DNA from: Flectonema sp. DT1601
Lineage: Eukaryota
Length of the DNA: 64,000 nucleotides
NCBI GenBank assembly: GCA_964019425.1
Contig: OZ025793.1
Coordinates: forward strand, 1,240,001 to 1,304,000
Direction of reading: 5' to 3'
The notes below the pieces were generated by a model, which saw nothing but the letters and a program-made list of their open reading frames with translations, was not told the origin of the DNA and searched no databases. Positions 36,301 to 61,371 of the stretch are shown piece after piece (within the stretch, counting starts at the first letter, position 1; each line of letters starts with the position of its first letter). Made by a program: the position numbers and the translations under genes.

Positions 36301-37301
36301 TCAGGGGTTGACGTCTTCCACTTTCGTCTCCGTTTCCCTTTGAAAAGGAGACGTCGACGAATGAATTTAGCCGCCACTTCATGCAGTATGTTGTTAAAGA
36401 GCTTGGCATTCGCAGTTGCATCAACGGAGAGTCTTGATTTTCTAATTCTCTTTTCGAGCATGGTCCCAAAGCAGTTCCAGTCCGTAGACTTGAAGTCCCA
36501 TACAACGCGTTTCTTCGAACCTATCGTGGCCCGTGCAAGTTGGCACATGGGATCCAGTACGGTGTAGAGAGGTCGATGATCTGACCCATGTTTATTATCT
36601 TCTTCAATTGCACTAAATTCTTCAAGAACCATCGAGTTTGAAAAGAATACTACATCTGGCGAGGTACCACCCCCCGGGACGTCAGGAAAAGGCCTTGTGA
36701 TTGACCCCATCTTGTTAGCAACCAGTAGATCATTTTGAGCTGCCCATGCATGTAGAGTTGAACCTGCTCTCGTCGATTTAAGTGACCACACCGGATGATG
36801 GGCATTAAAGTCACCCGCGACGATTGCTTTCGTTGAGACTGGAAGATCTGACTCTCTGATCATGCATCCCGGGGGAGCATAAACATTGATGATGTCAATC
36901 TTTCCACCTATGTTGACCTTCACGACCTCGACATCATTTAAGTGTGGCGGAAGCTCCATGTTCAAACGCTGCTGAGTGTGGCATTTTTTCACCATAGAAA
37001 TAACCCCTCCACCTCGTGTTGCCCTATCATTCCGATAGGTGAAATAGTCCGTGTGCGAAATTACATCATTCGTCCAAGTCTCCTGTAGGCACAGTACGTC
37101 AGGCGCATAGGCATTAAGCAGCTTGTGAATATAAGCGCCTTTGTTCCCCATCGATCGACAGTTCCAGCTCAGTAGAGATATGAGAGAGTTGTCAGGGCCA
37201 GGGTTGCGTTCGACGTCGCCTGCCTTTAGCAGCAGTTCACGAGCCGTATCCTTTTCCACAAGTGAGTTGGTCGGACTGAGTTCATCCTCATCGTCATCTA
37301 G
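33390..37301 (-). CDS. A1 ORF2: acidic linker, 2A peptide, AP endonuclease, RT, RNase H, C-terminal CCHC
   Basis: GDVERNPGP; SWNCRS, LQETW, GDFNAH, SDH; GVPQGSILGP, YADD; DGS, FTDS, HIGIEFHDEVD; CPFC..H...C. Confidence 0.95.
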   Translation of the reverse strand, partial: LDDDEDELSPTNSLVEKDTARELLLKAGDVERNPGPDNSLISLLSWNCRSMGNKGAYIHKLLNAYAPDVLCLQETWTNDVISHTDYFTYRNDRATRGGGVISMVKKCHTQQRLNMELPPHLNDVEVVKVNIGGKIDIINVYAPPGCMIRESDLPVSTKAIVAGDFNAHHPVWSLKSTRAGSTLHAWAAQNDLLVANKMGSITRPFPDVPGGGTSPDVVFFSNSMVLEEFSAIEEDNKHGSDHRPLYTVLDPMCQLARATIGSKKRVVWDFKSTDWNCFGTMLEKRIRKSRLSVDATANAKLFNNILHEVAAKFIRRRLLFKGKRRRKWKTSTPDSTKSKGVHLRDQLDKGNNFAFAFKKIKELQQDAGKDISVNNISDCDLPSAFLDLFVSKSEILSLEAPALSEGDNEIDICCDFTMAEIKAAIKNLKTRKAAGPDGVHNEMIKNFTPATVEYLLRIINTSWKTSKVPYQWKQGLIKPMFKAGKPRNELKSFRPITLTSVVGKLAERLVYDRLMHWLTKHSSLSPLQAGFRKGRNTCEQITVLVDAIVRSHMEEKRSVFLSFDFTAAFDRINHKILLLKLVKMGVPNVIIRWITDFLTNRKVRVEANGYFSEFRTLAKGVPQGSILGPLLYLIYVDDLCKILELEKETTTSALYADDTACVVSGSNMEEALSNAQLVLDKVDQWCFENDMALSVSKTCALKMNVRSKGIVLNDTCNRELLFSRSVEERMLKLDYGDIEKHINLKSPRPMLQSGETILEIGGIPIKTQEELDNLMLQYVVREDSIMVVRTIFKTAFLLPIVDSVKYLGVHIDDRLTFHKQVGKIHEELKRGISLLQCLQPYELDYKTLNMVKNLYVTARISYALDSFGWLISSSVDSIDFELRKVARLVTGCSKCTPRELLLWESDMYPFKRQIEKQTKIAYYRYKAMTWIPNTNRLASTQSYWAGLIPGTDSQRESQCLVQPDSMEPWVSPTNLRISNSCGFPKSANPAVDKEKFMSYIGTLPPVDMVINCDGSYSASGAAGAAHIAKSRSGLRSAYASRLYQADCSYRAEQHALKNAARHLRTVFSKDRSMKSVRIFTDSKSLLDELLGGRCRQRNTESLKILEYLRMCEMKVHLQFIPSHIGIEFHDEVDALAKEAAHNKNIRPVLVKGTYFSRSSHVKRCIKKDLLNVSGYTCYKHLIRGRSVKYPPGMERADEIRIANFRTGCHPLIQNWRKTIDCPFCGEPSSQVHLLQGCQSPKLDSARFKILGFSTLTGKWDRDRELIIANEIPNLEALFTLAWLPSLALIIRWMEQTSNLRLWK

Positions 37302-38960
37302 TCAGTTGAGATCAAAGTCCGAATCGTTACTTTCCATTTCTACGTCACGGTTTTTATCACTATCCTGCTTAGCAGCAGATTCGGTGGGCGGTGTTGTTGT
37401 TTGTGCTGTTGCTGGTGCTGGCGTTGGTGTTGGTGCTGATGGTGCTGGCGCTGGTGTTGGTGCTGATGTCGGCTGCTGAGTTGGCTGTTGTGGTTGAGGA
37501 GTTGTTTTTTGTCTCTTCAGGGTTCCCGTTAGTTTTTGAGCCGCGTCGCCTGGGTTGTAGGTTGGGCCTAGCGGTTTTCTGTCAGTTCGTTTAACTTCTT
37601 TGTTTATCACAAGGTATTCATTAGTACCTATGCTTATGAAGTTGGGCGGTTGAGATTTCGCAATTGCAACAATTGTAGTACTCCCTCCTTTATGGAAAGA
37701 AGCAACAACTGTGTGTTCCCAGTTGTGTGAGGACTTCAAGAAGTCGCTGATCTGCGCTGTCGAGTACTTACGAATCGCCATCGAATTTATAACAAACCTG
37801 TCGCCCGAGGGCAGTGCAGGCTTGATTGCCGCGTTGAGCTTAATGCTGACCCTGATATTACAGTCAGGGTGGACTCGGAGTCCAAAACAGCTTTTAAACC
37901 TGCACATGTAGAATTTTCCTTTGAATTCATCAAGTGCAGAAGTCTTGGACTTCGCTGCCAGGAAGCCAAGGTCGTTTTTGAATTGCAACGTTGGCCAAAC
38001 GTCACTTCCGTTCGACCAACTCGGGTTTCTGAAAAAGACATTCTTGGGTTTGTCAGTTTCGGGTTCGCTGTTGTTGTATTCCAGAACCTCGTGTACTTGG
38101 TTTCTGGGGACTCTGAAAGCCATCGAGGTGTGGGACTCGTTCTTTCTGTAGCTAAAGGGGTCCGCCTTTATCTTCAATTTCTTTAGAATATCGGTCGTTT
38201 TGACGGTCAATTCTTTCTCAGCTGATTTACCCCAGTCTTGGATGAATAGAACTGGGTTGGGAGTTGGAATCTGGTGGCTAGTTGCTGCTTTAGAAAAGTC
38301 GTCACCAAATACGTGCGTGTAAAATACGCGCCTGATCTCGCAGACGCCACCCTTTTTTATCACCGGTAATGCTACTGGAACGGTGCTCTTTGTGAGCGGG
38401 ATTTTGCTGATAGCAGCCCAACGGCCGCTCTTCTTTGTTTGGCGGAGTGCTTCTAAGTCTAGCTTCGAACGAACTAAAACAAGACCAGAGGTAAGGTTGT
38501 TTGTAGCATTAGCTGCTACGTCGTAACTGATGGTGGCCACAGCGCCTGCCCACGCACCGTGAATGTGCCACTCCGGGTAGCTTGCTTTTGCCTTTCCCTT
38601 CGTGGTTTGATTGTCCTTCATTGCTGTCGGTATCGGCAATGAGAACGGCTTCGTACTCGTTTGTTGATTAGAAGCTGTAGATGCTCCTGTAGTTGGTTGG
38701 TTGACACCTGTAGTTGAGGGTGTCGTCGCTTCTGCTGCCGTCGTCGCGGTCGCTTCCGTCCCACCACTCCCATCGAGTGTGTCCGGTGTCCTCCTCTTCA
38801 TCTCCGGGTTCCCACCTTCTGACCCAGCTACGAATTGAACGATCTCCATTAGGAGATTTGCCACCCTTCTTTCCTTCTCTTGCTCCGGGATCCCGTCTTC
38901 TCCCACTATCTTCAGGAGGTTTATTGCCTCCGATACCAACCTCTTCAGGTTGTCTCTCAT
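37302..38960 (-). CDS. A1 ORF1 (552 aa from first ATG), ending in TGA-CTAG
   Basis: Open frame; its C-terminal half is conserved in copy A2. Confidence 0.85.
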   Translation of the reverse strand: MRDNLKRLVSEAINLLKIVGEDGIPEQEKERRVANLLMEIVQFVAGSEGGNPEMKRRTPDTLDGSGGTEATATTAAEATTPSTTGVNQPTTGASTASNQQTSTKPFSLPIPTAMKDNQTTKGKAKASYPEWHIHGAWAGAVATISYDVAANATNNLTSGLVLVRSKLDLEALRQTKKSGRWAAISKIPLTKSTVPVALPVIKKGGVCEIRRVFYTHVFGDDFSKAATSHQIPTPNPVLFIQDWGKSAEKELTVKTTDILKKLKIKADPFSYRKNESHTSMAFRVPRNQVHEVLEYNNSEPETDKPKNVFFRNPSWSNGSDVWPTLQFKNDLGFLAAKSKTSALDEFKGKFYMCRFKSCFGLRVHPDCNIRVSIKLNAAIKPALPSGDRFVINSMAIRKYSTAQISDFLKSSHNWEHTVVASFHKGGSTTIVAIAKSQPPNFISIGTNEYLVINKEVKRTDRKPLGPTYNPGDAAQKLTGTLKRQKTTPQPQQPTQQPTSAPTPAPAPSAPTPTPAPATAQTTTPPTESAAKQDSDKNRDVEMESNDSDFDLN

Positions 38961-39018: not shown

Positions 39019-39034
39019 CAATAAAGTACAGAAA
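39019..39034 (-). other. spliced-leader remnant at the 5' end of A1
   Basis: Reverse complement is TTTCTGTACTTTATTG, the 3' 16 nt of the Leishmania/Diplonema-type SL exon. Confidence 0.85.
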
Positions 39035-41755
39035 ACTGACGGTATTGGTTTCAACCAAACTTCTTATCGGAAAACGCGTTCTTGCCGGGAAAACATCCTA
39101 TATGTTACGGACAGACTTAGATTTCTTAAACACCAAAAAAAGTCAGCGGCCCTTGTTCTTCTTGATATCGAAAAAGCTTTTGATAGTGTGAACCATGATC
39201 TTCTCCTTCAAAGGATGGTAGATCTTGGAATACCAAAACATTTTATAGCCTGGATTCAGGCCTTTCTTAAAAAACGAAGAGCAGCGGTTGTTGTTAATAA
39301 TGAAAAAGGTTCTTACCACAATGTTTATTCTGGCGTTCCACAAGGAACAGTTTTGTCGGCTCTACTTTTTACTCTGTATATTGAAAAAGTCGCAGAAAGA
39401 CTAGATATTACGGTTGCTAAGTATGCGGATGATATTGCTTTTGTAGTTGATGATGAAGGGAAAGGTTTTACTTATCATTTGGCAAAAACGAAATATTTCT
39501 TTAATGAGATTGAAAAGGATCTAAACGAATTAAAATTAAAAGTAAGTTATGAGCCTGACAAAACAAAACTTGTGTATTATCCCTACTCCCCAAATTCCCC
39601 ACTACAAACACCTTTCACTTTTACTTCAAATTTAACAAAAAATATTGTTCCATGTGTTGATAGCGCCAAGCTTCTTGGGGTGATCCTTGATAACAAGCTC
39701 GATTGGAAACAGCATATCTCGTATATTTGTAGAAGAGTTAATCTTCGCTTAAGGTATCTGAAGCTTGTCGCATCAAAAGCATGGGGACAGTGTACTGCAA
39801 CTTTGCGTGAGGTGTATGATTTGTATATTCGACCTGTCATAACAAACTCGTGTGAAGCTTTTTATCCTGAAGTTAGGTATAAAAAGATTCACATGGACAG
39901 GCTTCTCTCTTTACACCTTAGGGGTGCGTGCTATGTCTTAGGTGCCTTACCACCAACAAGGGAAACAAGAGATAAGATCTTTTTTGAGGCACAACAACAA
40001 AGTATCAACACCCATTTGAGACTTGAAACTGGTAGATGGTTCGCCAAAATGGCGCGAATCACGTCCCCTTTATTAAATGTCTTTATTCCACCTGAAAGAA
40101 TATCCTCAACACCCATTGATTCTTTTACTCGTTTAGGAATGAATGTTCTGAAAGAACACAACCTTCTATCACTCAGTTTTGAGAAATATCCCATTTACGT
40201 TCATCCTCCATGGAGTTTTTCAAATGATTTCAATGTTTTTAAACCAGAAATGCATGTTAGAAAAAAAAAAGACAAAAAGAAAAATAAAAAAGCCTGTGAA
40301 GCTGTTCTTAATGAAATAAGGAAAGATTATGAACCAGTCTTAGAGGTATATACCGATGGTGCCGTTGTTGAAGAACGCGGTGCTGCGGGTGTGTACATCA
40401 TAGACAGCGAAGGAAATGAATTTCTCACAAACAAAAGTGAAGCAGGAATAATCTGCACCTCTTTTAGGGCTGAAATGATGGCGATCAAAAACGCTTTTGT
40501 TTTACTTTTTAAGGAATTTGAACCGCCGGAAAATGCGTCAGTTTTATTTGTGTCAGACTCCTCCAGTGCCTTGATGGAACTGGAAAAAGGGGGAACAAAA
40601 CAGAAAACGAGACTAGGAAGCCGCATCTGGCAGTTTATTGAATTTTTCAACAATAAATTCAAAACAAAGTTTATTTTCCAGCATGTCTTTTCTCACTGTG
40701 GTATTGTCGGAAACGAAGAAGCAGACAAACTAGCCCAAAACATTTCATTAAAAAAAGATGAAGAAACCCTTTTAAAACAAAAAAAAGTTCCCATAGACTA
40801 CAGCACCCATGTAGCTAAACTAAAACACAGAATAAAAGAAAAATTTGACCCCCGTCCTTTCCCATCTGAAACTGAAAGAGCGGAAGAAATTCTGATTTCA
40901 CAACTCAGAATTGGCGACTGTAAACAAACACAAGGGAAATGTCCTAGGTGCAGAGAAAAAGACTCTGTAGAGCACCTGTTAGCAAAATGCTCAAAGTACA
41001 GAAAAGAGAGGAGGATGTATCTCCAGAAAGACTCTCTAACACAAGAAGAGTTAAAGGATTGTCTTTCCACTGTACAAGGACTAGAGAATGTTTTTCTTTT
41101 TATGTCATCTGCAAGAAGATATGTTTTTCCAGAAAAAGAAAAGAAAAAAGAAAATTTGAGTCAGGAAACAAAGAAAGAAAATGAAGAAAACGTTATCCTT
41201 CAACCCACACTTTTCAATACTGTGATTCAAAACTCACAACTGACTTGATTTCTCAAGCTTCCAAATTAACCAAAGTAGCACCTACACCATGGGGATGGTC
41301 TGATTGTTGATTGACTGATGGGCCGATATAGATTGGACACAGATCGAGAGTTTTTGAGAGATCTTAGATGAAAGTCCGCACCTTTCAGGCCATCCCCAAA
41401 AAGCACATAGCAGCTACAGCTATGTCAATTCAAATTGCGACGAGCTGCAACTTCGACATGAAGTTTTTCGTTATTGTTCTTACCTTCTCCACATATTTAC
41501 ATATGTGATAAGTATAAGTCATATCTTACGATTGACAATTCCTCCCCATAAATAAATTTCTTTTTATTATTTTATTTTACACCTGCCTTACTAACTTGGG
41601 GAGAAAGAAAGGAAGAACAATGGGCCTCTTATGAGGTGGGCAATTGCCCTGGACCCACATTAAATGTACGCGTGTTTTGCGTCAGCCCGTTGCTGTAGAA
41701 AAAGAAGAGACAGTTTCAGGTAGTAATGAAAAAAAAAAAAAAAAAAAAAAAAAAA
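39030..41755 (+). mobile_element. non-LTR retrotransposon family B, copy B1 (5'-truncated inside RT; RT-RNase H-CCHC open to 41248; 3' UTR; poly(A))
   Basis: GVPQGTVLS, YADD, YTDGA, HCGIVGNEEAD, CPRC..H...C; poly(A) run of about 27 nt; near-identical to B2. Confidence 0.93.
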
Positions 41756-41780
41756 TTCAAAAAAAGGTTTTATTTATTAC

Positions 41781-42053: not shown

Positions 42054-45000
42054 TTTTTTTTGGTTACACTCGTCTGTGCTACCAAACTCTTTGTTTTTGT
42101 TCTTTTCACTTCTATGTTTTGTCTTTCTTTTATACTTTCTTTTGGCTTAAGTCTGACAAATTGGAAAACACGGGAAACATAGGTAGGCTCCGCCTGAGGA
42201 CGTAAGAAGAGCGGCAACGGAAAAATAAGTGGTCACGCGTCCTTGAAATTGGACACATGAAGCTAATTCGGTTACCATTCCTACCATCGATAAGGAAAAA
42301 ACAAAGAATCGAGCATATAACTAGAGCGGTGGTCAAAGACCACTTGAACAGCCCGAAGGCCTGCCCTCAAGAGAAATTTATAAGGAGAATAGGAGAAGAA
42401 GGAGACAGGAGTGTTGGAAGAGACACTGCGACAACACCGAAGGTGGTGTGCAGTTACCCAACCAGGAGATGATTGATAATGATGAAAATACTAAAAAAAT
42501 AATAACAAATTGATATTGGCGACTACATGTCACCTACTTTACTTCCAAAGTCTAAGGTTAGATGTCTGTTCCATCCACCTTATGATCAACGCGAGTGATG
42601 GAAGCCACGCCAAAGTGAAGAGAGCTTCAAGGTTAGGAATTTCGTTGGCAATAATAAGTTCTCGATCGCGATCCCACTTGCCGGTCAGTGTTGAGAAGCC
42701 CAGGATTTTGAACCTGGCAGAGTCGAGTTTGGGAGATTGACATCCCTGCAGCAGGTGAACCTGTGAGGACGGTTCGCCACAAAATGGGCAGTCGATTTTC
42801 TTGCGCCAGTTCTGAATTAGCGGGTGACATCCTGTCCGGAAGTTCGCTATCCGTATCTCGTCGGCTCTTTCCATCCCAGGAGGGTATTTAACGGAACGGC
42901 CTCCGATGAGGTGTTTGTAGCAGGTGTAACCACTCACGTTAAGCAGATCCTTTTTGATGCAGCGCTTAACATGTGATGATCGCGAGAAGTAAGTGCCTTT
43001 GACTAGCACAGGTCGGATGTTCTTGTTGTGCGCTGCTTCCTTTGCAAGCGCGTCAACTTCATCGTGAAACTCGATTCCAATGTGTGAGGGGATGAATTGC
43101 AAATGCACTTTCATTTCACACATGCGCAGGTATTCTAGTATCTTGAGGGACTCAGTATTCCTCTGTCTGCACCTTCCACCCAGCAGTTCATCCAGAAGGG
43201 ATTTTGAGTCCGTGAATATCCTCACAGATTTCATTGAACGATCTTTGCTAAACACTGTTCTCAGATGTCTAGCCGCGTTCTTCAGAGCATGTTGTTCAGC
43301 CCTGTAGCTGCAGTCAGCTTGATAAAGCCTAGACGCGTAAGCAGATCGAAGGCCGCTACGTGACTTGGCAATATGAGCCGCTCCGGCCGCGCCGGAAGCA
43401 GAGTAGGAGCCATCGCAGTTGATTACCATGTCGACAGGAGGTAACGTTCCAATGTACGACATGAATTTTTCTTTGTCCACCGCAGGGTTCGCGGACTTCG
43501 GAAATCCGCAGCCGTTGCTAATCCTAAGGTTTGTCGGAGATACCCAGGGTTCCATCGAGTCAGGCTGTACAAGGCACTGGCTTTCACGCTGGCTGTCAAT
43601 GCCAGGAAGGAGGCCAGCCCAGTAGCTTTGGGTTGAGGCGAGTCTGTTGGTACTAGGTATCCAAGTCATGGCTTTATACCTGTAGTACGCTATCTTGGTT
43701 TGCTTTTCAATCTGACGTTTAAAAGGAAGCATGTCCGCTTCCCACAGTAGAAGTTCTCTCGGTGTGCACCTGCTGCATCCAGTAACCAGCCTGGCAACCT
43801 TCCTCAGTTCGAAATCAATACTATCAACGCTGTTGCTTATCAACCAACCAAAGCTATCGAGCGCATAAGAGATTCTCGCAGTTACGTAAAGGTTCTTGAC
43901 CATATTTAGCGTTTTGTAGTCAAGATCATACGGTTGAAGGCATTGAAGCAGAGATATTCCCTTTTTCAGTTCTTCATGAATCTTAGCCACCTGTTTGTGG
44001 AAAGTGAGTCTGTCGTCGATGTGAACTCCGAGGTATTTCACTGAGTCCACGATTGGCAACAGAAATGCGGTTTTAAAACTGGCTTTCACCACCATCACGT
44101 TGTCTTCGAGAACAATATTCCGCAACATCACGTTGTCAAGTTCGTCTTGCGTTTTGATCGGAGTTCCATCAACCTCGAGAATAGTTTCGCCGCTTTGAAG
44201 CATGGGTCTAGAAGAAGTTAAGTTGATACTCTTTTCAATGTCACTATAGTCCATTTTGATAACGTTTTCCACAACAGATCTGGAAAATAGTAATTCGCGA
44301 TTGCAGGTGTCGTTGAGAATCGTATCCTTCGTACGGACTTTCATCTTAAGAGCACAGGTCTTTGAGACCGACAGGGCCATGTCGTTGTCAGAACACCATT
44401 GATCCACTTTATCAAGTATTATTTGAGCATTTGAAAGAGCTTCTTCCATGTTATGTCCAGATACTACACATGCTGTATCATCCGCATACAGAGCAGACGT
44501 CGTTGTTTCCTTCTCCAGTTCCAAAATCTTGCAGAGGTCATCAACGTAGATAAGATAGAGAAGAGGACCCAGGATCGATCCCTGTGGAACCCCCTTAGCC
44601 AGAGTACGGAATTCGCTAAGATAACCATTCGCTTCAACTCTAACCTTCCTGTTTGTAAGAAAGTCTGTGATCCATCTGATAATAACATTCGGAACACCCA
44701 TCTTTACCAATTTTAATAAAAGTATCTTATGGTTGATCCTGTCAAACGCAGCAGTAAAATCAAACGATAAGAACACCGATCTCTTTCTCTTCATGTGCAT
44801 CCTTACGACGGCATCTACCAAAACGGTGATCTGTTCGCAGGTATTTCTCCCCCTTCTGAATCCAGCCTGTAGTGGGCTGAGTGACGAATGTTTAGTGAGC
44901 CAGTGCATGAGTCGGTCATACACGAGCCTCTCCGCAAGTTTCCCAACAACCGAGGTGAGCGTAATGGGTCTGAAACTCTTCAGCTCATTTCGAGGTTTTC

Positions 45001-47290
45001 CAGCCTTGAACATAGGCTTGATTAAACCTTGTTTCCACTGGTACGGTACTTTTGAAGTCTTCCAAGAAGTGTTAATAATTCTCAAGAGGTATTCCACTGT
45101 TGCCGGAGTGAAGTTTTTGATCATCTCATTGTGAACTCCATCAGGTCCTGCAGCCTTGCGGGTCTTCAGGTTCTTAATCGCTGCTTCAATTTCAGCCATT
45201 GTGAAATCACAGCAAATATCCATTTCATTATCACCTTCTGAGAGTGCGGGGGCCTCTAGCGATAATATTTCCGATTTCGAGACAAACAGGTCCAAGAATG
45301 CTGATGGGAGATCGCAGTCAGAGATGTTGTTGACACTGATATCTTTACCAGCATCTTGCTGCAGTTCTTTGATCTTCTTAAACGCAAAGGCAAAGTTGTT
45401 ACCCTTGTCAAGTTGATCACGTAGGTGGATACCCTTCGATTTGGTGGAATCTGGAGTTGACGTCTTCCACTTTCGTCTCCGTTTCCCTTTGAAAAGGACA
45501 CGTCGTCGAATGAATTTAGCCGCTACTTCATGCAGTATGTTGTTAAAGAGCTTAGCATTCGCAGTTGCATCGTTGGAGAGTTTCGATTTTCTAATTCTCT
45601 TATCGAGCATATTTCCAAAGCAGTTCCAGTCCGTAGACTTGAAGTCCCACACTACGCGTTTCTTAGAACCTATCGTGGCCCGTGTAAGTTGACACATGGG
45701 ATCCAGTACGGTGTAGAGAGGTCGGTGATCAGATCCATGTTTATTATCTTCTCTAATTACAGAGAATTCTTCCAGAATCATCGAGTTTTGAAAAAATACT
45801 ACGTCCGGCGAGGTACCGCCCCCCGGGATATTAGGAAAAGGCCTTGTGATTGACCCCATCTTGTTGGCTACCAGTAGATCATTGTGTGCTGCCCATTCAT
45901 GTAGAGTAGAACCTGCTGGCGTCGATTTTGATGACCACACCGGATGATGGGCATTAAAGTCACCCGCGACGATTGCTTTCGTTGAGACTGGAAGATCTGA
46001 CTTTCTGATCTTGCATCCCGGGGGAGCATAAATATTTAAGATGTCAATCTTTCCACCTATGTTGACCTTTACAACTTCAACATCATTTAAGTGAGGCGGA
46101 AGTACGATATCAGAACGCTGCTGAGTGTGGCATTTCTTCACCATAGTAATAACCCCACCACCCCGTGTTGCCCTATCATTCCGATAGGTAAAATAATCCG
46201 TGTGTGAGACTACATCTTTTGTCCAAGTTTCTTGCAGGCACAGTACGTCAGGCGCATAGGCATTGAGCAGCTTGTGTATGTAGGCACCTTTGTTCCCCAT
46301 TGATCGACAGTTCCAGCTTAGTAGTGATATGAGGGAGTCGTCAGGGCCAGGGTTGCGTTCGACATCGCCTGCCTGAAGCAGCAGTTCACGAGCCGTATTC
46401 TTTTCTGTGAGTGAGTTGGTCGGATTTAAATCATCGTCATCTTCATCTAGTCAGTTGAGGTCAAAATCCGAGTCATCGTCTTCCATTTCAACATCGCCGT
46501 TCTTATCACCTTCTTGTTTAACAGCAGATTTAGTGGGTGGTGGAGCTGATGCTGGTGTGGGTGCTGGCGCTGGTGTCGGTGCTGCTGCCGTCTGATGTGG
46601 TAGCTGAGTTGGTTGTTGTGGTTGAGGAGCTGTCTTCTGTCTCTTCAGGGTTCCTGTCAGTTTTTGAGCCGCGTCGCCTGGGTTGTAGGTTGGGCCTAGC
46701 GGTTTTCTGTCACTTTTCTTAACTTCCTTGTTTATCACAAGGTACTCATTGGTGCCTATGCTCACGAAGTTGGGAGGCTGCGTGTTTGAAATCGCCACAA
46801 TCGTAGTGCTTCCACCTTTGTTAAACGATGCGACCACTGTGTGCTCCCAGTTGTGAGAGGACTTCATAAAGTCGCTGATCTGCGCTGTTGAGAATTTCCG
46901 TATCGCCATTGATTTTATAATGTACCTGTCACCGGAAGGCAGTGCAGGTTTGAGTGACGCGCTTAACTTAATACGCACTTCAGTGTTGCAGTCGGGATGA
47001 ACTCGGAGTCCATAACAGGTTTTGAACTTACACAGGTAGAATTTACCTTCGAAACCTTCCAGTATTGATGTCTTGGACTTTGCTGCCAAGAATCCAAGAT
47101 CGTTATTGAATTGAAGAGTTGGCCAGACATCGCTTCCATTTGACCAGCTCGGGTTTCTGACAAATACATTCTTAGGTTTGTCGGTCTCCGGGTCGTTATT
47201 GTTAAACTCCAGAATCTTGTGTACTTGGTTTCTGGGAATTCTAATAGCCATTGAGGAATGTGAATCATTTCGTTTGTAACTGAAAGGGGC
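42054..47290 (-). mobile_element. family A copy A2 (5'-truncated in ORF1; ORF2 intact)
   Basis: Same 3' UTR and terminus as A1; ORF1 C-terminal half, TGA-CTAG, 2A and ORF2 all present. Confidence 0.95.
42539..46450 (-). CDS. A2 ORF2 (linker, 2A, APE, RT, RNase H)
   Basis: In frame with the ORF1 stop; RELLLQAGDVERNPGP. Confidence 0.93.
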   Translation of the reverse strand, partial: LDEDDDDLNPTNSLTEKNTARELLLQAGDVERNPGPDDSLISLLSWNCRSMGNKGAYIHKLLNAYAPDVLCLQETWTKDVVSHTDYFTYRNDRATRGGGVITMVKKCHTQQRSDIVLPPHLNDVEVVKVNIGGKIDILNIYAPPGCKIRKSDLPVSTKAIVAGDFNAHHPVWSSKSTPAGSTLHEWAAHNDLLVANKMGSITRPFPNIPGGGTSPDVVFFQNSMILEEFSVIREDNKHGSDHRPLYTVLDPMCQLTRATIGSKKRVVWDFKSTDWNCFGNMLDKRIRKSKLSNDATANAKLFNNILHEVAAKFIRRRVLFKGKRRRKWKTSTPDSTKSKGIHLRDQLDKGNNFAFAFKKIKELQQDAGKDISVNNISDCDLPSAFLDLFVSKSEILSLEAPALSEGDNEMDICCDFTMAEIEAAIKNLKTRKAAGPDGVHNEMIKNFTPATVEYLLRIINTSWKTSKVPYQWKQGLIKPMFKAGKPRNELKSFRPITLTSVVGKLAERLVYDRLMHWLTKHSSLSPLQAGFRRGRNTCEQITVLVDAVVRMHMKRKRSVFLSFDFTAAFDRINHKILLLKLVKMGVPNVIIRWITDFLTNRKVRVEANGYLSEFRTLAKGVPQGSILGPLLYLIYVDDLCKILELEKETTTSALYADDTACVVSGHNMEEALSNAQIILDKVDQWCSDNDMALSVSKTCALKMKVRTKDTILNDTCNRELLFSRSVVENVIKMDYSDIEKSINLTSSRPMLQSGETILEVDGTPIKTQDELDNVMLRNIVLEDNVMVVKASFKTAFLLPIVDSVKYLGVHIDDRLTFHKQVAKIHEELKKGISLLQCLQPYDLDYKTLNMVKNLYVTARISYALDSFGWLISNSVDSIDFELRKVARLVTGCSRCTPRELLLWEADMLPFKRQIEKQTKIAYYRYKAMTWIPSTNRLASTQSYWAGLLPGIDSQRESQCLVQPDSMEPWVSPTNLRISNGCGFPKSANPAVDKEKFMSYIGTLPPVDMVINCDGSYSASGAAGAAHIAKSRSGLRSAYASRLYQADCSYRAEQHALKNAARHLRTVFSKDRSMKSVRIFTDSKSLLDELLGGRCRQRNTESLKILEYLRMCEMKVHLQFIPSHIGIEFHDEVDALAKEAAHNKNIRPVLVKGTYFSRSSHVKRCIKKDLLNVSGYTCYKHLIGGRSVKYPPGMERADEIRIANFRTGCHPLIQNWRKKIDCPFCGEPSSQVHLLQGCQSPKLDSARFKILGFSTLTGKWDRDRELIIANEIPNLEALFTLAWLPSLALIIRWMEQTSNLRLWK

Positions 47291-47357
47291 TGCAAAAGGT
47301 TTATTTATTTATATTGTTTTATTTACTTTATTCAAAAAAGAACTTAAAAGGAAATTC

Positions 47358-48313
47358 TTTTTTTCTTTTTTTTGGTTACACTCGGGGGCGTCATAGTGCA
47401 GTGGATGGGGTGGTGCCCCCGCACCCAATCGGCCTCGGTTCGAACCCCGCTGTACGCACCGCGCCTCACAGCGCAATCAGTTTCCGTGTCGCATCCCCCA
47501 TTGTCTCGAAAAAGTGAACGGCCACCCAGTAAGGGCAGCGCCTAAGCAATTATAGTAGTAACAAAAAGAAGGAGAAACACAGTAGTGAAACACTCAAAAA
47601 AAAAAAAAAAAAAGGTTACACTCGTCTGTGCTTCCAGACTCTTTGTTTTTGTTCTTTTCACTTCTTTGTTTTGTCTTTCTTTTATACTTTCTTTTGATTT
47701 AAGTCTGACAAATTGGAAAACACGGGAAACATAGGTAGGCTCCGCCTGAGGACGTAAGAAGAGCGGCAACGGAAAAATACATGGTCACGCGTCCTTGAAA
47801 TTGGACACACGAAGCTAATTCGGTTACCATTCCTATCATCGATAAGGAAAAACAAAGAATCGAGCATATAACTAGAGCGGTGGTCAAAGACCACTTGAAC
47901 AGCCCGAAGGCCTGCCCTCAAGAGAAATTTATAAGGAGAATAGGAGAAGAAGGAGACAGGAGTGTTGGAAGAGACACTGCGACAACTCCGAAGGTGATGT
48001 GCAGTTACCCAACCAGGAGATGATTGATAATGATGAAAATACTAAAAATTATAACAAATTGATATTGGCGACTACATGTCACCTACTTTATTTCCAGAGT
48101 CTAAGGTTAGATGTCTGTTCCATCCACCTTATGATCAACGCGAGTGATGGAAGCCACGCCAAAGTGAAGAGAGCTTCAAGGTTAGGAATTTCGTTGGCAA
48201 TAATAAGTTCTCGATCGCGATCCCACTTGCCGGTCAGTGTTGAGAAGCCCAGGATTTTGAACCTGGCCGAGTCGAGTTTGGGAGATTGACATCCCTGCAG
48301 CAGGTGAACCTGT
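47358..48313 (-). mobile_element. family A copy A3 (short 3' fragment) interrupted by a SINE
   Basis: 3' UTR and last ~75 codons match A1/A2. Confidence 0.9.
47385..47613 (+). mobile_element. tRNA-derived SINE with poly(A) and 11-bp TSD
   Basis: A box TAGTGCAGTGG, B box GGTTCGAACCC, A18 tail; GGTTACACTCG at 47374-47384 and 47614-47624. Confidence 0.85.
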
Positions 48314-51300
48314 CCTGGAAAATGGAAAGGGAAAAAAGGAAAGAAAGGAACCAAGGGAGAGAGCGGTAAAGGAAAAAAAACTGTTTTGTCACCACCGTCA
48401 ACCTCAGTAACCCCGTCAATAGAACAAAACGGACATTTTAAACCAGCTAAAATTATTATTAGATGCACAAACAAAGCATCTAACAACAAAGATCATTGGC
48501 ACTTTTCTAGCCGATGATCCGAAAAAGCAAGCAGAAGCTTGGGATGCGGAATTAAACCCGCAAGAAAAAGAAGGTTTTCAACAAGGATCGATGGACGAAG
48601 ACATCGATCTTGTGAAGCTGAAGCTGGACAAAGAAAACAGTGATAGTGATGACAACACAAAAAGAAAAAAAGAAGAACCTCCGAATTGACTGTTTCCTTA
48701 TAATTTTTATCTTTTTTATTTCTCGAACCTTCTTTTGTGTGGAGACATCCACCCGAACCCGGTCCACAAAAAAAGCGGGAGGAGATTGTTAAAGTGGAAG
48801 GAGGAGAACGGTAAGGAAGTCTCACAGGCGGTAACAAGCACACACGAGAAAAATATTGTGCCTGAAACCACCACGGAGCCTACCATGGACCATGACTCAG
48901 ACAAGATGACGTCAGACTCGAGCTCGATCTGCTCCCCACCGACACAAGAAGACCGCCCCCCCAGTAGGGATGTGTGGGTGCGGAAAGGAGATACCGCAAG
49001 CAGCGATCAAGAATCCGGTGAAACACCCGACGAAGGGATGGTGTGATAGGTGTGGAGAGCGGATCGCGAAGGGAACACGGGTAGTCATGTGCGTGAAGTG
49101 TGACCACGCTGAATGCTGCGGATTGTTGGAGAGATCGCGGCGTGGGAAAGAGAAGAGGAAAAGGAAATCACGGGGATCGCGATCGAAAAACGATGCCATG
49201 TGAGAAGCATGAAACGGAAAGTGAATGAACGGAAAAAATTAAATGTAAAGAAGTGAACTTGTAAAAAATGTAAAGAAGCAAACATGTGAAAAGAAAAATG
49301 AAAAAAAAAAGAAGAGTGAAAAGGAAGACAGAGTTGTATGTAAACTGTATGTAAATGTAAGAAGAAAGAAAAAACACGCTGGAAGTGGGAGTGCAACCAT
49401 CAGCGCAAACACAACCACAAATATTGTTTTTTTTCCTTTTTCTTTTCTTCGCTTCGGCGACAGATATGGTAGGACCTAGAAAACCGGCCCAAAACTTGTG
49501 TTGCAGTTTATCTTTTTAGCGCACACTCATGTAACATAAGGATCGCTGGTTCCGAGGGTTTGCTCTCCTGCCATACTTGCCTCTCACCTGCCTCAAAAAA
49601 AAAAAAAAGCAAAAAAACAGTGAGTTGAGAATTGTATCTTTTAATGTTTGTGGTCTCAAGTCGAAATCCGACGAAATAACTTTTTTTTACAAAATATAAA
49701 ACCTGACCTATTCATGGTTCAGGAAACTTTGTTAAAGGATAACGACGAAACCATTAATTTTAATGGGTACAAGTGTCTCAGAAGAGACCGGAGAATTCCG
49801 GTAAAAAAAAACGCACCCGTCAGAGGTGGTGGATTGGCAATTTTTTACAAGAACAGCCTAAGCGTGACGTCACAGCTGTTGCACAACACAGCCAAGACTG
49901 CACTGAAGTCCAGGGCATTTTGTGTCAAATTCAAAACAAACTGTAAGGGTATACAACGTGTACAGACCACCGGTAAGCCAATCAACCTCTGATAGGTCCC
50001 CCTCTTTTGATATGAATAGTATTTTTCTTTTTAATAAAAATGATAAAGTAGTTATCGCGGGGGATCTTAACGCAAGGCATCCACTCTGGGACCCGAGAGA
50101 CGAGTCAAACACAAATGGCCATGAAGTCTCGACTTTTCTAAACAATAACCAGTTTGAATGCTGCAACGTTAAGGAAATCCCCACAAGACCAAAATCAAAC
50201 ACTTCTCCTGATGTTGTTCTCCAAAAAAACTGTGATATTGGCAACTGGACGACGCTCGAATCTCTATCAAGCGATCATGTACCAATGTATTTTTCTCATT
50301 CTTTTTTTTCGGATTCGATAAACAGAGCGAACGGTGCAACGGTTTTTTCTTATAATTGGAACAGGGCACTGTGGCCAAACTACAGCTCCCACCTCGAAAG
50401 GGTGGCGAAGCGACTTGAAAAGATTCAAGATAACCAGAAATTATCAATGGAATTCATAAGAGAATTAAAAAATGCGCTACGGATCTTTGTACCAAGGATT
50501 TATTTGAAAGGAAAGTCACCAAAGAAGTGGTGGAACACGACGGTTGCATCTAAGTTTCATGAGTTCAACGAGTCACATTGTGACAAACGGGATGATCTTA
50601 CAGATCTGTCGCAACAGGGAAAGTCAATTTTTACATCTTTAAAAAAAGAACTCAAAAAAACAGTCGTTGATGCCAAGAATCAACAGTTTAAAAAAAGCCT
50701 TAAAAAAGACAAGTCTATTATTGAAGCTTTTGAAGACATAAGAGGCCTTGATGGAAGATCAAGGCTTAAAGAAATTCGAGAAATCACCTGTGGTGATAAA
50801 CTTGTTACAGATGATGTGAAAAAAGCATCAATTTTCAATAATCAATTTTTACAACGTGTTGGTAACATCGAAGAAAAAACAAAGACAAAGAAAATAGAAA
50901 CAGACCCTTCTGATTTTACACCATTTACACAACATGAACTTAGAATCCAATTGAGAGGAATGGCTCTGGAAAAGAACTCACCAGATGGCGTTCAAGGTAT
51001 TCTTCTTAACCATTTGGGACCTAGAATGCTAAACATTTTACTTAAGATTTTTAACAATTCGTGGAAACATTCTGTTGTCCCGAGTGATTGGAAAGACACA
51101 CACTGGATCCCTGTTTTAAAAAAAGGAAAACCCCCAAACCTCCCCTCTTCATATAGAATGATCTCTCTCACCCCTTTTATTGCGAAATTGATGGAAAGAA
51201 TGGTGAAGGAACGTCTTACGTATTTTATGCAATCACCGAATGAAAAGAAAACTGACGGTATTGGTTTCAACCAAACTTCTTATCGGAAAACGCGTTCTTG

Positions 51301-53234
51301 CCGGGAAAACATCCTATATGTTACGGACAGACTTAGATTTCTTAAACACCAAAAAAAGTCAGCGGCCCTTGTTCTTCTTGATATAGAAAAAGCTTTTGAT
51401 AGTGTGAACCATGATCTTCTCCTTCAAAGGATGGTAGATCTTGGAATACCAAAACATTTTATAGCCTGGATTCAGGCCTTTCTTAAAAAACGAAGAGCAG
51501 CGGTTGTTGTTAATAATGAAAAAAGTTCTTACCACAATGTTTATTCTGGCGTTCCACAAGGAACAGTTTTGTCGGCTCTACTTTTTACTCTGTATATTGA
51601 AAAAGTAGCAGAGAGACTAGATATTACGGTTGCTAAGTATGCGGATGATATTGCTTTTGTAGTTGATGATGAAGGGAAAGGTTTTACTTATCATTTGGCA
51701 AAAACGAAATATTTCTTTAATGAGATTGAAAAGGATCTAAACGAATTAAAATTAAAAGTAAGTTATGAGCCTGACAAAACAAAACTTGTGTATTATCCCT
51801 ACTCCCCAAATTCCCCACTACAAACACCTTTCACTTTTACTTCAAATTTAACAAAAAATATTGTTCCATGTGTTGATAGCGCCAAGCTTCTTGGGGTGAT
51901 CCTTGATAACAAGCTCGATTGGAAACAGCATATCTCGTATATTTGTAGAAGAGTTAATCTTCGCTTAAGGTATCTGAAGCTTGTCGCATCAAAAGCATGG
52001 GGACAGTGTACTGCTACTTTGCGTGAGGTGTATGATTTATATATTCGACCTGTCATACCAAACTCGTGTGAAGCTTTTTATCCTGAAGTTAGGTATAAAA
52101 AGATTCACATGGACAGGCTTCTCTCTTTACACCTTAGGGGTGCGTGCTATGTTTTAGGTGCCTTACCACCAACAAGGGAAACAAGAGATAAGATCTTTTT
52201 TGAGGCACAGCAACAAAGTATCAACACCCATTTGAGACTTGAAACTGGTAGATGGTTCGCCAAAATGGCGCGAATCACATCCCCTTTATTAAATGTCTTT
52301 ATTCCACCTGAAAGAATATCCTCAACACCCATTGATTCTTTTACTCGTTTAGGAATGAATGTTCTGAAAGAACACAACCTTCTATCACTCAGTTTTGAGA
52401 AATATCCCATTTACGTTCATCCTCCATGGAGTTTTTCAAATGATTTCAATGTTTTTAAACCAGAAATGCATGTTAGAAAAAAAAAAGACAAAAAGAAAAA
52501 TAAAAAAGCCTGTGAAGCTGTTCTTAATGAAATAAGGAAAGATTATGAACCAGTCTTAGAGGTATATACCGATGGTGCCGTTGTTGAAGAACGCGGTGCT
52601 GCGGGTGTGTGCATCATAGACAGCGAAGGAAACGAATTTCTCACAAACAAAAGTGAAGCAGGAATAATCTGCACCTCTTTTAGGGCTGAAATGATGGCGA
52701 TCAAAAACGCTTTTGTTTTACTTTTTAAGGAATTTGAACCGCCGGAAAATGCGTCAGTTTTATTTGTGTCAGACTCCTCCAGTGCCTTGATGGAACTGGA
52801 AAAAGGGGGAACAAAACAGAAAACGAGACTAGGAAGCCGCATCTGGCAGTTTATTGAATTTTTCAACAATAAATTCAAAACAAAGTTTATTTTCCAGCAT
52901 GTCTTTTCTCACTGTGGTATTGTCGGAAACGAAGAAGCAGACAAACTAGCCCAAAACATTTCATTAAAAAAAGATGAAGAAACCCTTTTAAAACAAAAAA
53001 AAGTTCCCATAGACTACAGCACCCGTGTAGCTAAACTAAAACACAGAATAAAAGAAAAAATTGACCCGTCCTTTCCCATCTGAAACTGAAAGAGCGGAAG
53101 AAATTCTGATTTCACAACTCAGAATTGGCGACTGTAAACAAACACAAGGGAAATGTCCTAGGTGCAGAGAAAAGGACTCTGTAGAGCATCTTTTAGCAAA
53201 ATGCTCAAAGTACAGAAAAGAGAGGAGGATGTAT
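48314..53234 (+). mobile_element. family B copy B2 (ORF1 end, TGA, 2A-like motif, Cys-rich region, APE, RT, RNase H; frameshifted; 3' end interrupted)
   Basis: LLLCGDIHPNP, SFNVCG, VQET, GDLNARH, SSDH, YADD; frameshifts near 48760, 49650, 49900 and 53065. Confidence 0.9.
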
Positions 53235-60932: not shown

Positions 60933-61371
60933 ATATTTCCCTTTTGTTTCCTGTTTTTGTAAACGTAACTTTTCTTTGATGAGCAGCTACAAATATTTTT
61001 TTCAGTTACTGTTTTTATGTTGTCAAAGTTTCCTATACCTAACTTTAGTCAACTGATTATAAATTACTAATGTTAATTTACTCTGCATTAGAAATCTTCT
61101 CAAACTGTTATTCACGCGCGTGAAATGCGACTACGCGGAATGCTGGAGAGATCGCGTCGTGGAAGGTTGAAGGAGAAGAGAAAAACAGAAACTCTTTTTT
61201 CTATAACAGTTCAACGTTATTATCAAAAACCTTTTTCCATTTATAAAAGAGATCTAATATTCTCCATTTATTTATCTTGCTTTTTCATATCGGGTGAATC
61301 CTTAGAGATGGATATTCGCAATGTTCATTTGGTTCCTGTTAAACTTTAATTCCAGTTATGTATTTTAACAT

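Follow-up and report, generated by a model that had tools for sequence, protein, structure and literature searches.

How does a LINE-like (long interspersed nuclear element-like) retrotransposon translate a second open reading frame (ORF2) that begins without a start codon of its own? The question is raised by a stretch of 64,000 nucleotides from Flectonema sp. DT1601 (GenBank assembly GCA_964019425.1, contig OZ025793.1, positions 1,240,001 to 1,304,000 of the forward strand), analyzed at its full length and referred to here as the window. It contains two families of retrotransposons without long terminal repeats (non-LTR), named A and B. In both, ORF1 ends at a TGA behind which a 2A-like peptide and ORF2 follow in the same frame; this TGA is the sole stop between ORF1 and ORF2, and no AUG is found ahead of the endonuclease. 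Judged by this layout, the ORF2 protein (ORF2p) of family B is probably made through readthrough of the UGA by a minority of ribosomes, followed by separation at the 2A peptide.

The features of the family B copy in which the junction was read are listed below. P0159 and P0128 are ORF1 and ORF2 proteins, respectively, of other family B copies.

48314 to ~53243, plus strand: family B element, a damaged copy of a non-LTR retrotransposon with apurinic/apyrimidinic endonuclease (APE), reverse transcriptase (RT) and RNase H
48317..48421, plus strand: ORF1 fragment, approximately residues 333-367 of the 454-residue P0159 (tblastn)
48423..48686, plus strand: C-terminal tail of ORF1, 88 codons, ending KRKKEEPPN, 93% identical to P0159 residues 369-454
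48687..48689, plus strand: ORF1 stop TGA, context AAT TGA CTG, with the 2A peptide in frame
48690..48761, plus strand: linker and 2A-like peptide LFPYNFYLFYFSNLLLCGDIHPNP, 24 codons with no AUG, directly read
48761..48776, plus strand: rest of the 2A peptide (GP) and QKK, in the next frame; intact in P0128 as NPGPQKKQKNSE
48777..49610, plus strand: retroposed insert of 834 nt (a multiple of 3) with an A-run at its end, absent from P0128
49611..53243, plus strand: ORF2, 92.6% identical to P0128, encoding APE, reverse transcriptase and RNase H together with a Cys/His motif

The ORF1 frame, open from 48423, reads ...KENSDSDDNTKRKKEEPPN before AAT TGA CTG, and the same frame encodes LLLCGDIHPNP after the TGA without any AUG. 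A preliminary description of this DNA had reported an Asn codon, then TGA-CT, then a 2A-like peptide for family B. This layout was reproduced letter for letter, with the TGA at 48687-48689, and so was the remark that the copy is one base short of NPGP: after 48761 the sequence continues GTCCAC, one base is missing from the G run and the NPGP is interrupted, with GP QKK read in the shifted frame at 48761-48775. The stop and the G-D core are 17 codons apart. Upstream of the GDIHPNPGP core lies YLFYFSNLLLC, and 14 of 17 residues in this region are shared with the N-terminus of P0004, a transcript-derived relative (tblastn). The ORF1 fragment at 48317..48421 is out of frame with the tail, owing to an indel near 48422. 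An intron across the stop, suggested by the pyrimidine-rich stretch after the TGA, was considered and rejected: the encoded peptide is conserved with P0004, which marks the stretch as coding.

The insert separates the 2A peptide from its own endonuclease, which lies approximately 850 bases downstream, and is flanked by a 9-bp direct repeat, AAAAAAAGC, at 48768-48776 and 49602-49610. When the sequence is read across it, GPQKK is followed by QKNSELRIVSFNVC in the same frame, in agreement with CGDIHPNPGPQKKQKNSELRIVSF in P0128; the 2A-like peptide stands about ten residues before the endonuclease. Pfam identified Exo_endo_phos_2 (1.4e-14), RVT_1 (8.1e-35) and RNase_H (4.4e-11) in 49907-53083. Family B therefore encodes its APE endonuclease together with the reverse transcriptase in a single ORF, and has RNase H after the reverse transcriptase, an Ingi/I-group trait. 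Frameshifts of the window copy lie near 49690, 49866, 49920 and 53067, and homology ends after 53243 (tblastn). Within the insert there is also a Cys-rich frame (48910-49200) for which Pfam gave no match, and which matches 61109-61185 weakly, at 70%; this frame of 97 residues was rejected as a PHD-type ORF1 domain of family B, being located inside the insert.

Family B copies outside the window are known from protein records of the same assembly, which give ends and starts but not codons. A sense codon in place of the stop was looked for, and all four distinct ORF1 proteins (P0159, P0160, P0161 and P0162) were found to end at the same Asn, in KRKKEEPPN. P0159 (454 residues) is recorded on three contigs and the others on one each, six contigs together. 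The search with family B ORF2 led to 18 proteins of a single ENA assembly that cluster as near-identical; 15 were listed and five read. P0128 (1299 residues), an intact family B ORF2, begins (M)CGDIHPNPGPQKKQKNSELRIVSFIVCGLK and has the full NPGP, in the frame that the preliminary description had predicted; its 2A peptide is joined directly to the endonuclease, NPGPQKKQKNSELRIVSF, as it is in the window when read across the insert. ORF1 and ORF2 records were found on contigs of matching sizes (825223, 410523, 430786 and 227357 bases). The ORF1 ends, together with P0128, show that the stop, a complete NPGP and the joining of 2A to endonuclease are traits of family B and not products of decay. 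The first residue of P0128 corresponds to a TTG in the window, the first ATG, GTG or TTG after the TGA, which is the start that a gene caller yields with a stop just upstream. The four other ORF2 records read start further downstream, at MVQETLL (two records), MYRPPVS and MKGKSPKKWW.

No fused ORF1-2A-ORF2 protein of family B was obtained in a search among longer proteins or in an exhaustive search of 1.84 billion representatives; the read-through query returned only the P0159 cluster, matching its C-terminal residues 369-454. The 208-residue read-through product had no homologue among proteins of near length, and a metagenome scan with P0159 gave 395 pattern matches and no relative. The 454-residue ORF1 itself has a Gln-rich start and a Gly/Lys-rich stretch. 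Pfam gave no match in ORF1 of family A or family B, and neither shows sequence likeness to a known ORF1p type. The fold predicted for P0160 by AlphaFold2 without an alignment was unusable (mean predicted local distance difference test score 36.9), and a search of the ESM Atlas for ORF1 relatives gave no usable match.

The stop-then-2A arrangement that had been described for family A was found in both full copies of that family.

46343..46453, minus strand: junction of family A copy 1; TGA at 46451-46453, CTAG, 27 linker codons, GDVERNPGP, endonuclease
37194..37304, minus strand: junction of family A copy 2; TGA at 37302-37304, then CTAG, with the layout of copy 1

Each copy reads ...DSDFDLN, AAC TGA CTA G, 27 codons, GDVERNPGP and endonuclease, and contains a single internal in-frame stop. 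In the comparison of copy 1 with copy 2, the ratio of nonsynonymous to synonymous substitution rates (dN/dS) was 0.10 for ORF1 (275 codons) and 0.11 for ORF2 (1267 codons), and the nine codons of the 2A core showed no nonsynonymous change. Purifying selection in the ORFs and the presence of one internal stop per copy indicate that the TGA is part of working family A elements. Protein records agree with the position of the stop: 28 ORF1 proteins were listed from two clusters (20 and 13 members), of which 21 end DSDFDLN and seven are cut earlier, and none reads on or contains NPGP. For ORF2, 15 records were listed from a cluster of 101 members, 40 of which were read. Of these 15, seven have the first ATG as their start (MGNKGAY, within the endonuclease), three use a GTG of the linker and read (M)EKDTARELLLKAGDVERNPGP, and five are fragments. 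Family A ORF1 (37305-38960, minus strand; P0164-P0191) is approximately 550 residues long, with a region rich in Pro, Thr and Ala followed by an acidic tail.

Scanned in all six frames for 2A-like cores, the 64 kb window yielded four matches. Of these, three are the retrotransposon ORF1/ORF2 junctions, which are therefore more than chance, and one, at 4106-4095, is a bare NPGP.

The position of the first AUG bears directly on how ORF2 could be reached. In neither family does the ORF2 frame contain an AUG until it is within the endonuclease and past the [SW]-x-N motif: in family A the Pfam endonuclease profile has its position 1 at residue 44 and the first Met is residue 51, and in family B the first Met, MVQET, comes after the motif. 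An ORF2p initiated at AUG would therefore be without the N-terminal [SW]-x-N motif, the Asn of which we take to be catalytic. The coding sequence that follows the stop in frame is under selection, as seen in the dN/dS of family A ORF2 and in the stop position common to the four family B ORF1 proteins.

In the mechanism proposed here, a minority of ribosomes would decode the UGA that ends ORF1 and continue in frame. The nascent ORF1p would be set free between NPG and the last P of the 2A core, carrying 24-36 additional residues, and ORF2p would continue as a separate chain in an amount set by the readthrough rate. A low ratio of ORF2p to ORF1p would be expected by analogy with retroviral Gag and Gag-Pol, in which the enzyme is kept low relative to the structural protein.

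The letters around the stop and the 2A core are those on which this mechanism would depend; statements on published work refer, here and below, to the accessible passages of the papers cited. UGA-CUAG is an experimentally defined readthrough motif that gave 3-31% readthrough when assayed with mammalian reporters, and UGA-C counts as a weak stop (Loughran et al. 2014, PMC4132726). The UGA-CUAG motif is present in both full copies of family A and is replaced in family B by UGA CUG U; the stop context would favour readthrough in family A and in part in family B. Both families have an Asn codon before the in-frame UGA and CU after it, and the distance to the core differs, 17 codons in B and 27 in A. 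The canonical 2A motif is G-D-(V/I)-E-x-N-P-G-P (PMC3708506), and some 10-20 upstream residues, Leu-rich in class A peptides, form its context (PMC12338488). Family A matches the canonical motif, Glu included (GDVERNPGP). The NPGP C-terminus is complete in P0128, P0004 and family A, and the window copy of family B stops at NP.

Several observations weigh against readthrough followed by 2A separation. The family B stop is UGA-CUG, compared with the CUAG that has been tested, and its core, GDIHPNPGP, has His at the position of the canonical Glu; the residue after D(V/I) is an important determinant as Glu, and E-to-S variants were inactive (Odon et al. 2013, PMC3708506). No stable RNA structure was found after the stop in either family (z -0.46 for B, +1.38 and +0.06 for A, compared with shuffled sequences). 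The family A linker appears weakly constrained (27 codons, 13 differences, dN/dS 0.72). P0004 has a Met of its own 16 codons before LLLCGD, which indicates that the lineage can use an ordinary start for the 2A peptide. Finally, an in-frame arrangement in two related families is weak statistics, 1 in 9 if the families are independent and 1 in 3 if it was co-inherited. As to whether UGA readthrough and 2A StopGo in tandem, within 20-35 codons, are the regular expression system of an RNase H-bearing LINE-like lineage, we see the chances as even.

The His variant of the 2A core was compared with metagenome contigs. A pattern scan found the exact GDIHPNPGP in at least 119 loci, a comparison set that provides a rough background and not a census, since many of the contigs are short or decayed. 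Among the matches listed, 22 loci run to the locus edge without an upstream stop and 97 have an in-frame upstream stop. A Met lies between stop and motif in 67 of these 97, which are ordinary N-terminal 2A peptides of the kind described by Odon et al. (2013, PMC3708506); in each of the 30 without such a Met, the same frame upstream of the stop is open for fewer than 100 codons. Fused forms, in which an open frame of at least 200 codons leads into the motif, account for four of the listed loci. No match listed comes closer than approximately 22-35% to the ORF2s of A, B and P0004, and neither ORF1 is matched by any of them. The His/Pro variant of the 2A motif is widespread among eukaryotic contigs. 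A related motif, GDVHPNPGP, is conserved in yadokariviruses (PMC10817634), the only form of HPNPGP found in print among openly searchable papers.

Individual loci of this set have their own features. Among the matches listed, the segment after GDIHPNPGP is mostly an endonuclease start or Cys-rich (PHD-like). Locus L009 (100-2877) contains a long ORF with two 2A cores, DVELNPGP and GDIHPNPGP, and membrane-like and RING-like segments between them, and resembles a viral polyprotein more than a retrotransposon. Loci L017 and L030 consist of an ORF1 (coiled-coil-like by eye), TAA, 169 codons with Mets, GDIHPNPGP, a Cys-rich segment and endonuclease; they have an ORF1 and a 2A-headed ORF2 with a long spacer, in contrast to the tight junction of families A and B. 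Locus L043, in which AAT TGA CTA stands 23 codons before the motif, was set aside as uninformative, since the frame upstream is open for only 53 codons and its ORF2 is decayed.

The alternative that survives best is termination followed by reinitiation, or non-AUG initiation, near the UGA; the 2A peptide would then only trim a short leader, as it does in elements with one ORF headed by a 2A, and the shared frame would be coincidental. We regard this as possible but rather unlikely. Reinitiation is the mechanism discussed for ORF2 of non-LTR elements (PMC3708506; PMC3894237; PMC5972666), and N-terminal 2A peptides with short leaders are common, as shown by P0004 and by the loci with a Met in the leader (67 of 97 among the matches listed). 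Family B has a CUG directly after its UGA. CUG is the best near-cognate start. Family A, however, has CUA there, which is no near-cognate start, and reinitiation needs none of the features that are common to A and B, that is, the shared frame, the UGA and the C at +4. Reinitiation after a long ORF1 was, moreover, judged highly improbable in a review of these elements (PMC3894237).

A second alternative accepts readthrough as real and supposes that the His-variant 2A of family B does not skip, the product being an ORF1-ORF2 fusion or a lowered downstream yield. Glu substitutions did lower or abolish activity in tested cases (PMC3708506), and in a 2026 preprint most of the retrotransposon 2A-like peptides tested lowered protein abundance and did not act by simple skipping (PMC13405545). 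We nevertheless think the proposal improbable: at least 119 diverged loci retain the exact GDIHPNPGP, which is also identical between B and P0004, elements with an ORF2 identity of 34%, the yadokarivirus GDVHPNPGP is conserved (PMC10817634), and the 2A of family A is the canonical DVERNPGP.

The third alternative takes the TGA for a decay mutation of a damaged copy and the true element for one continuous ORF1-2A-ORF2. The window copy of family B is heavily damaged indeed, with one base lost, the 834-nt insert and several frameshifts, and fused forms exist elsewhere: the four loci with at least 200 open codons among the matches listed, of which one among those inspected resembles a viral polyprotein, and two cases from Cordylochernes scorpioides in the preprint (PMC13405545). 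This explanation is contradicted by the ORF1 and ORF2 protein records of both families and can hardly hold, since all four recorded ORF1 proteins of family B terminate at one Asn, 21 of the 28 ORF1 records of family A likewise share their final Asn with none reading on, and no fused protein appeared in the longer-protein or the exhaustive search. Decoding of TGA as an amino acid by the host, through a variant code or selenocysteine, has the open frame itself as its sole support and is also contradicted, to the point of being scarcely credible, because family B ORF2 terminates with TGA (41246), no internal TGA occurs in the 1303-codon family A ORF2 or other long ORFs, and Rfam found no selenocysteine insertion sequence in the window, its single match being one tRNA.

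Whether the two families share the arrangement or reached it by convergence had been left open in the preliminary description. Over 640 residues, ORF2 of A matches that of B at 25% identity (E 1e-50), and the RNase H of family B can be aligned with the tail of family A ORF2 (30% over 130 residues). The ORF2 of P0004 is 34% identical to that of B, with LLLCGDIHPNPGP and LLLCGDIHPNP identical to B, and a third family, represented by P0136, has a motif decayed to NVHPNPEP. As the ORF2s are homologous and the 2A-to-endonuclease junction can be aligned across A, B, P0004 and P0136, the 2A peptide at the head of ORF2 would most simply be inherited in A and B and not convergent. The ORF1s of A and B, in turn, gave no alignment (best E 3.3). 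The choice offered earlier is thereby narrowed, with common descent favoured over convergence for the 2A-endonuclease head. The layout described there holds; that it is a "strategy", in the sense of readthrough plus skipping, would be a prediction from the sequence.

The layout of families A and B combines two known kinds, 2A-bearing non-LTR elements and gag-pol-type readthrough. ORF2p of animal elements from the Rex1, CR1, L2, Crack and Ingi clades has been described as carrying a 2A peptide in its N-terminal part (Odon et al. 2013, PMC3708506), and L1Tc/Ingi of trypanosomes are 2A-bearing non-LTR elements of the APE type (Heras et al. 2006, cited in PMC3708506). As in these elements, in some of which it lies directly upstream of the endonuclease, the 2A peptide here heads the APE/RT protein, and a Leu-rich stretch precedes G-D-(V/I)-x-x-N-P-G-P. 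Most 2A elements are without ORF1, and gain of 2A was linked with loss of ORF1; three exceptions were given, in which the joining of the ORFs is not described in the passages concerned (PMC3708506). A companion review has 2A replacing ORF1 as a down-regulator and discusses reinitiation and entry through an internal ribosome entry site (IRES), and in its accessible passages not readthrough (PMC3894237); the term "read-through" is absent from the text of PMC3708506 and PMC3894237. Whereas 2A-bearing APE elements have an ordinary start and mostly no ORF1, families A and B have a long ORF1 (454 residues in B, its tail abutting the 2A peptide in the window, and approximately 550 in A), no AUG before the 2A peptide, and a UGA in frame 17-27 codons before the core.

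With Gag-UGA/UAG-Pol readthrough the two families share a structural or RNA-binding gene and an enzyme gene in one frame, separated by a single stop. Gag-stop-Pol readthrough is known from murine leukaemia virus. In retroviral and LTR Gag-Pol a protease cuts the fusion later; here no protease is present, and a co-translational 2A would cut instead. The downstream RNA structure of Gag-Pol systems was not found in families A or B. Tca2 has a gag-UGA-pol junction (PMC3956500). UGA-CUAG or UGA-CUA contexts occur in OPRL1, OPRK1, MAPK10, AQP4 and alphaviruses (Loughran et al. 2014, PMC4132726); family A has the exact UGA-CUAG, and family B has UGA-CU with G third after the stop. Those contexts were tested in mammalian cells and not in this host (PMC4132726).

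Two further comparisons concern the link between the ORFs. In the fused proteins of the pseudoscorpion Cordylochernes scorpioides the 2A peptide lies between the ORF1p and ORF2p parts, as here, but these are single proteins for which no stop is mentioned in the accessible passages of the preprint, whereas families A and B keep the stop and none of their recorded proteins reads on (PMC13405545). SART1 (UAAUG overlap) and human L1 (63-nt spacer) are also bicistronic, with ORF2 reached without a conventional scanning start (PMC3708506; PMC5972666). Reinitiation has been shown for SART1 and proposed for human L1. Families A and B differ in having neither an overlap of stop and start nor a spacer: the 2A peptide follows at once in a continuous frame. 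An ORF1-stop-2A-ORF2 arrangement was not found in the literature on 2A peptides and non-LTR elements that was searched, supplements and subscription journals lying outside its scope.

For the translation of ORF2 in bicistronic LINE-like RNAs, reinitiation and IRES-like entry have been listed as open options (PMC3894237). The present sequence offers a simple answer for one lineage, since ORF2 is without its own start, lies in frame behind a UGA in a leaky context, and is headed by a peptide known for co-translational separation. If readthrough and 2A separation do operate here, the junction would represent a naturally occurring pair of recoding signals acting in series, a compact "leaky stop plus 2A" cassette yielding two separate proteins at a fixed low ratio. 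It would amount to dosage control of the gag-pol style in non-LTR retrotransposons without a protease, and would run counter to the published correlation of 2A presence with ORF1 absence.

The remaining retrotransposon copies of the window are as follows.

42054-47289, minus strand: family A copy 1 (self-BLAST)
32908 to ~39028, minus strand: family A copy 2, 89.7% identical to copy 1 over the common part
47614-48313, minus strand: family A copy 3, 5'-truncated, adjoining the start of the family B element (self-BLAST)
39029-41756, plus strand: second copy of family B, 5'-truncated, ORF2 residues 561-1299, 99.6% identical to P0128

The second family B copy is nearly intact and borders directly on family A copy 2, at the 5' end of the latter. 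Its ORF2 ends with TGA at 41246, and a 28-nt poly(A) tail is located at 41729-41756; with this tail and 99.6% identity, family B looks to have been recently active. The host part of the window contains long ORFs with PP2C, SAM, SPRY, RING and Atg3-like domains (Pfam), among which non-LTR retrotransposons are abundant.

All three family A copies lie on the minus strand (self-BLAST). Copies 1 and 3 are separated by 324 nt (47290-47613) that have no match elsewhere in the window, and no tRNA was found adjacent to either. A tRNA-Ile gene is located at 32885-32812 on the minus strand, and the 3' end of copy 2 (32908) lies 22 bases upstream from it. Some amoebozoan LINE-like elements are known to insert near tRNA genes, and the position of copy 2 may be a hint of insertion next to such genes.

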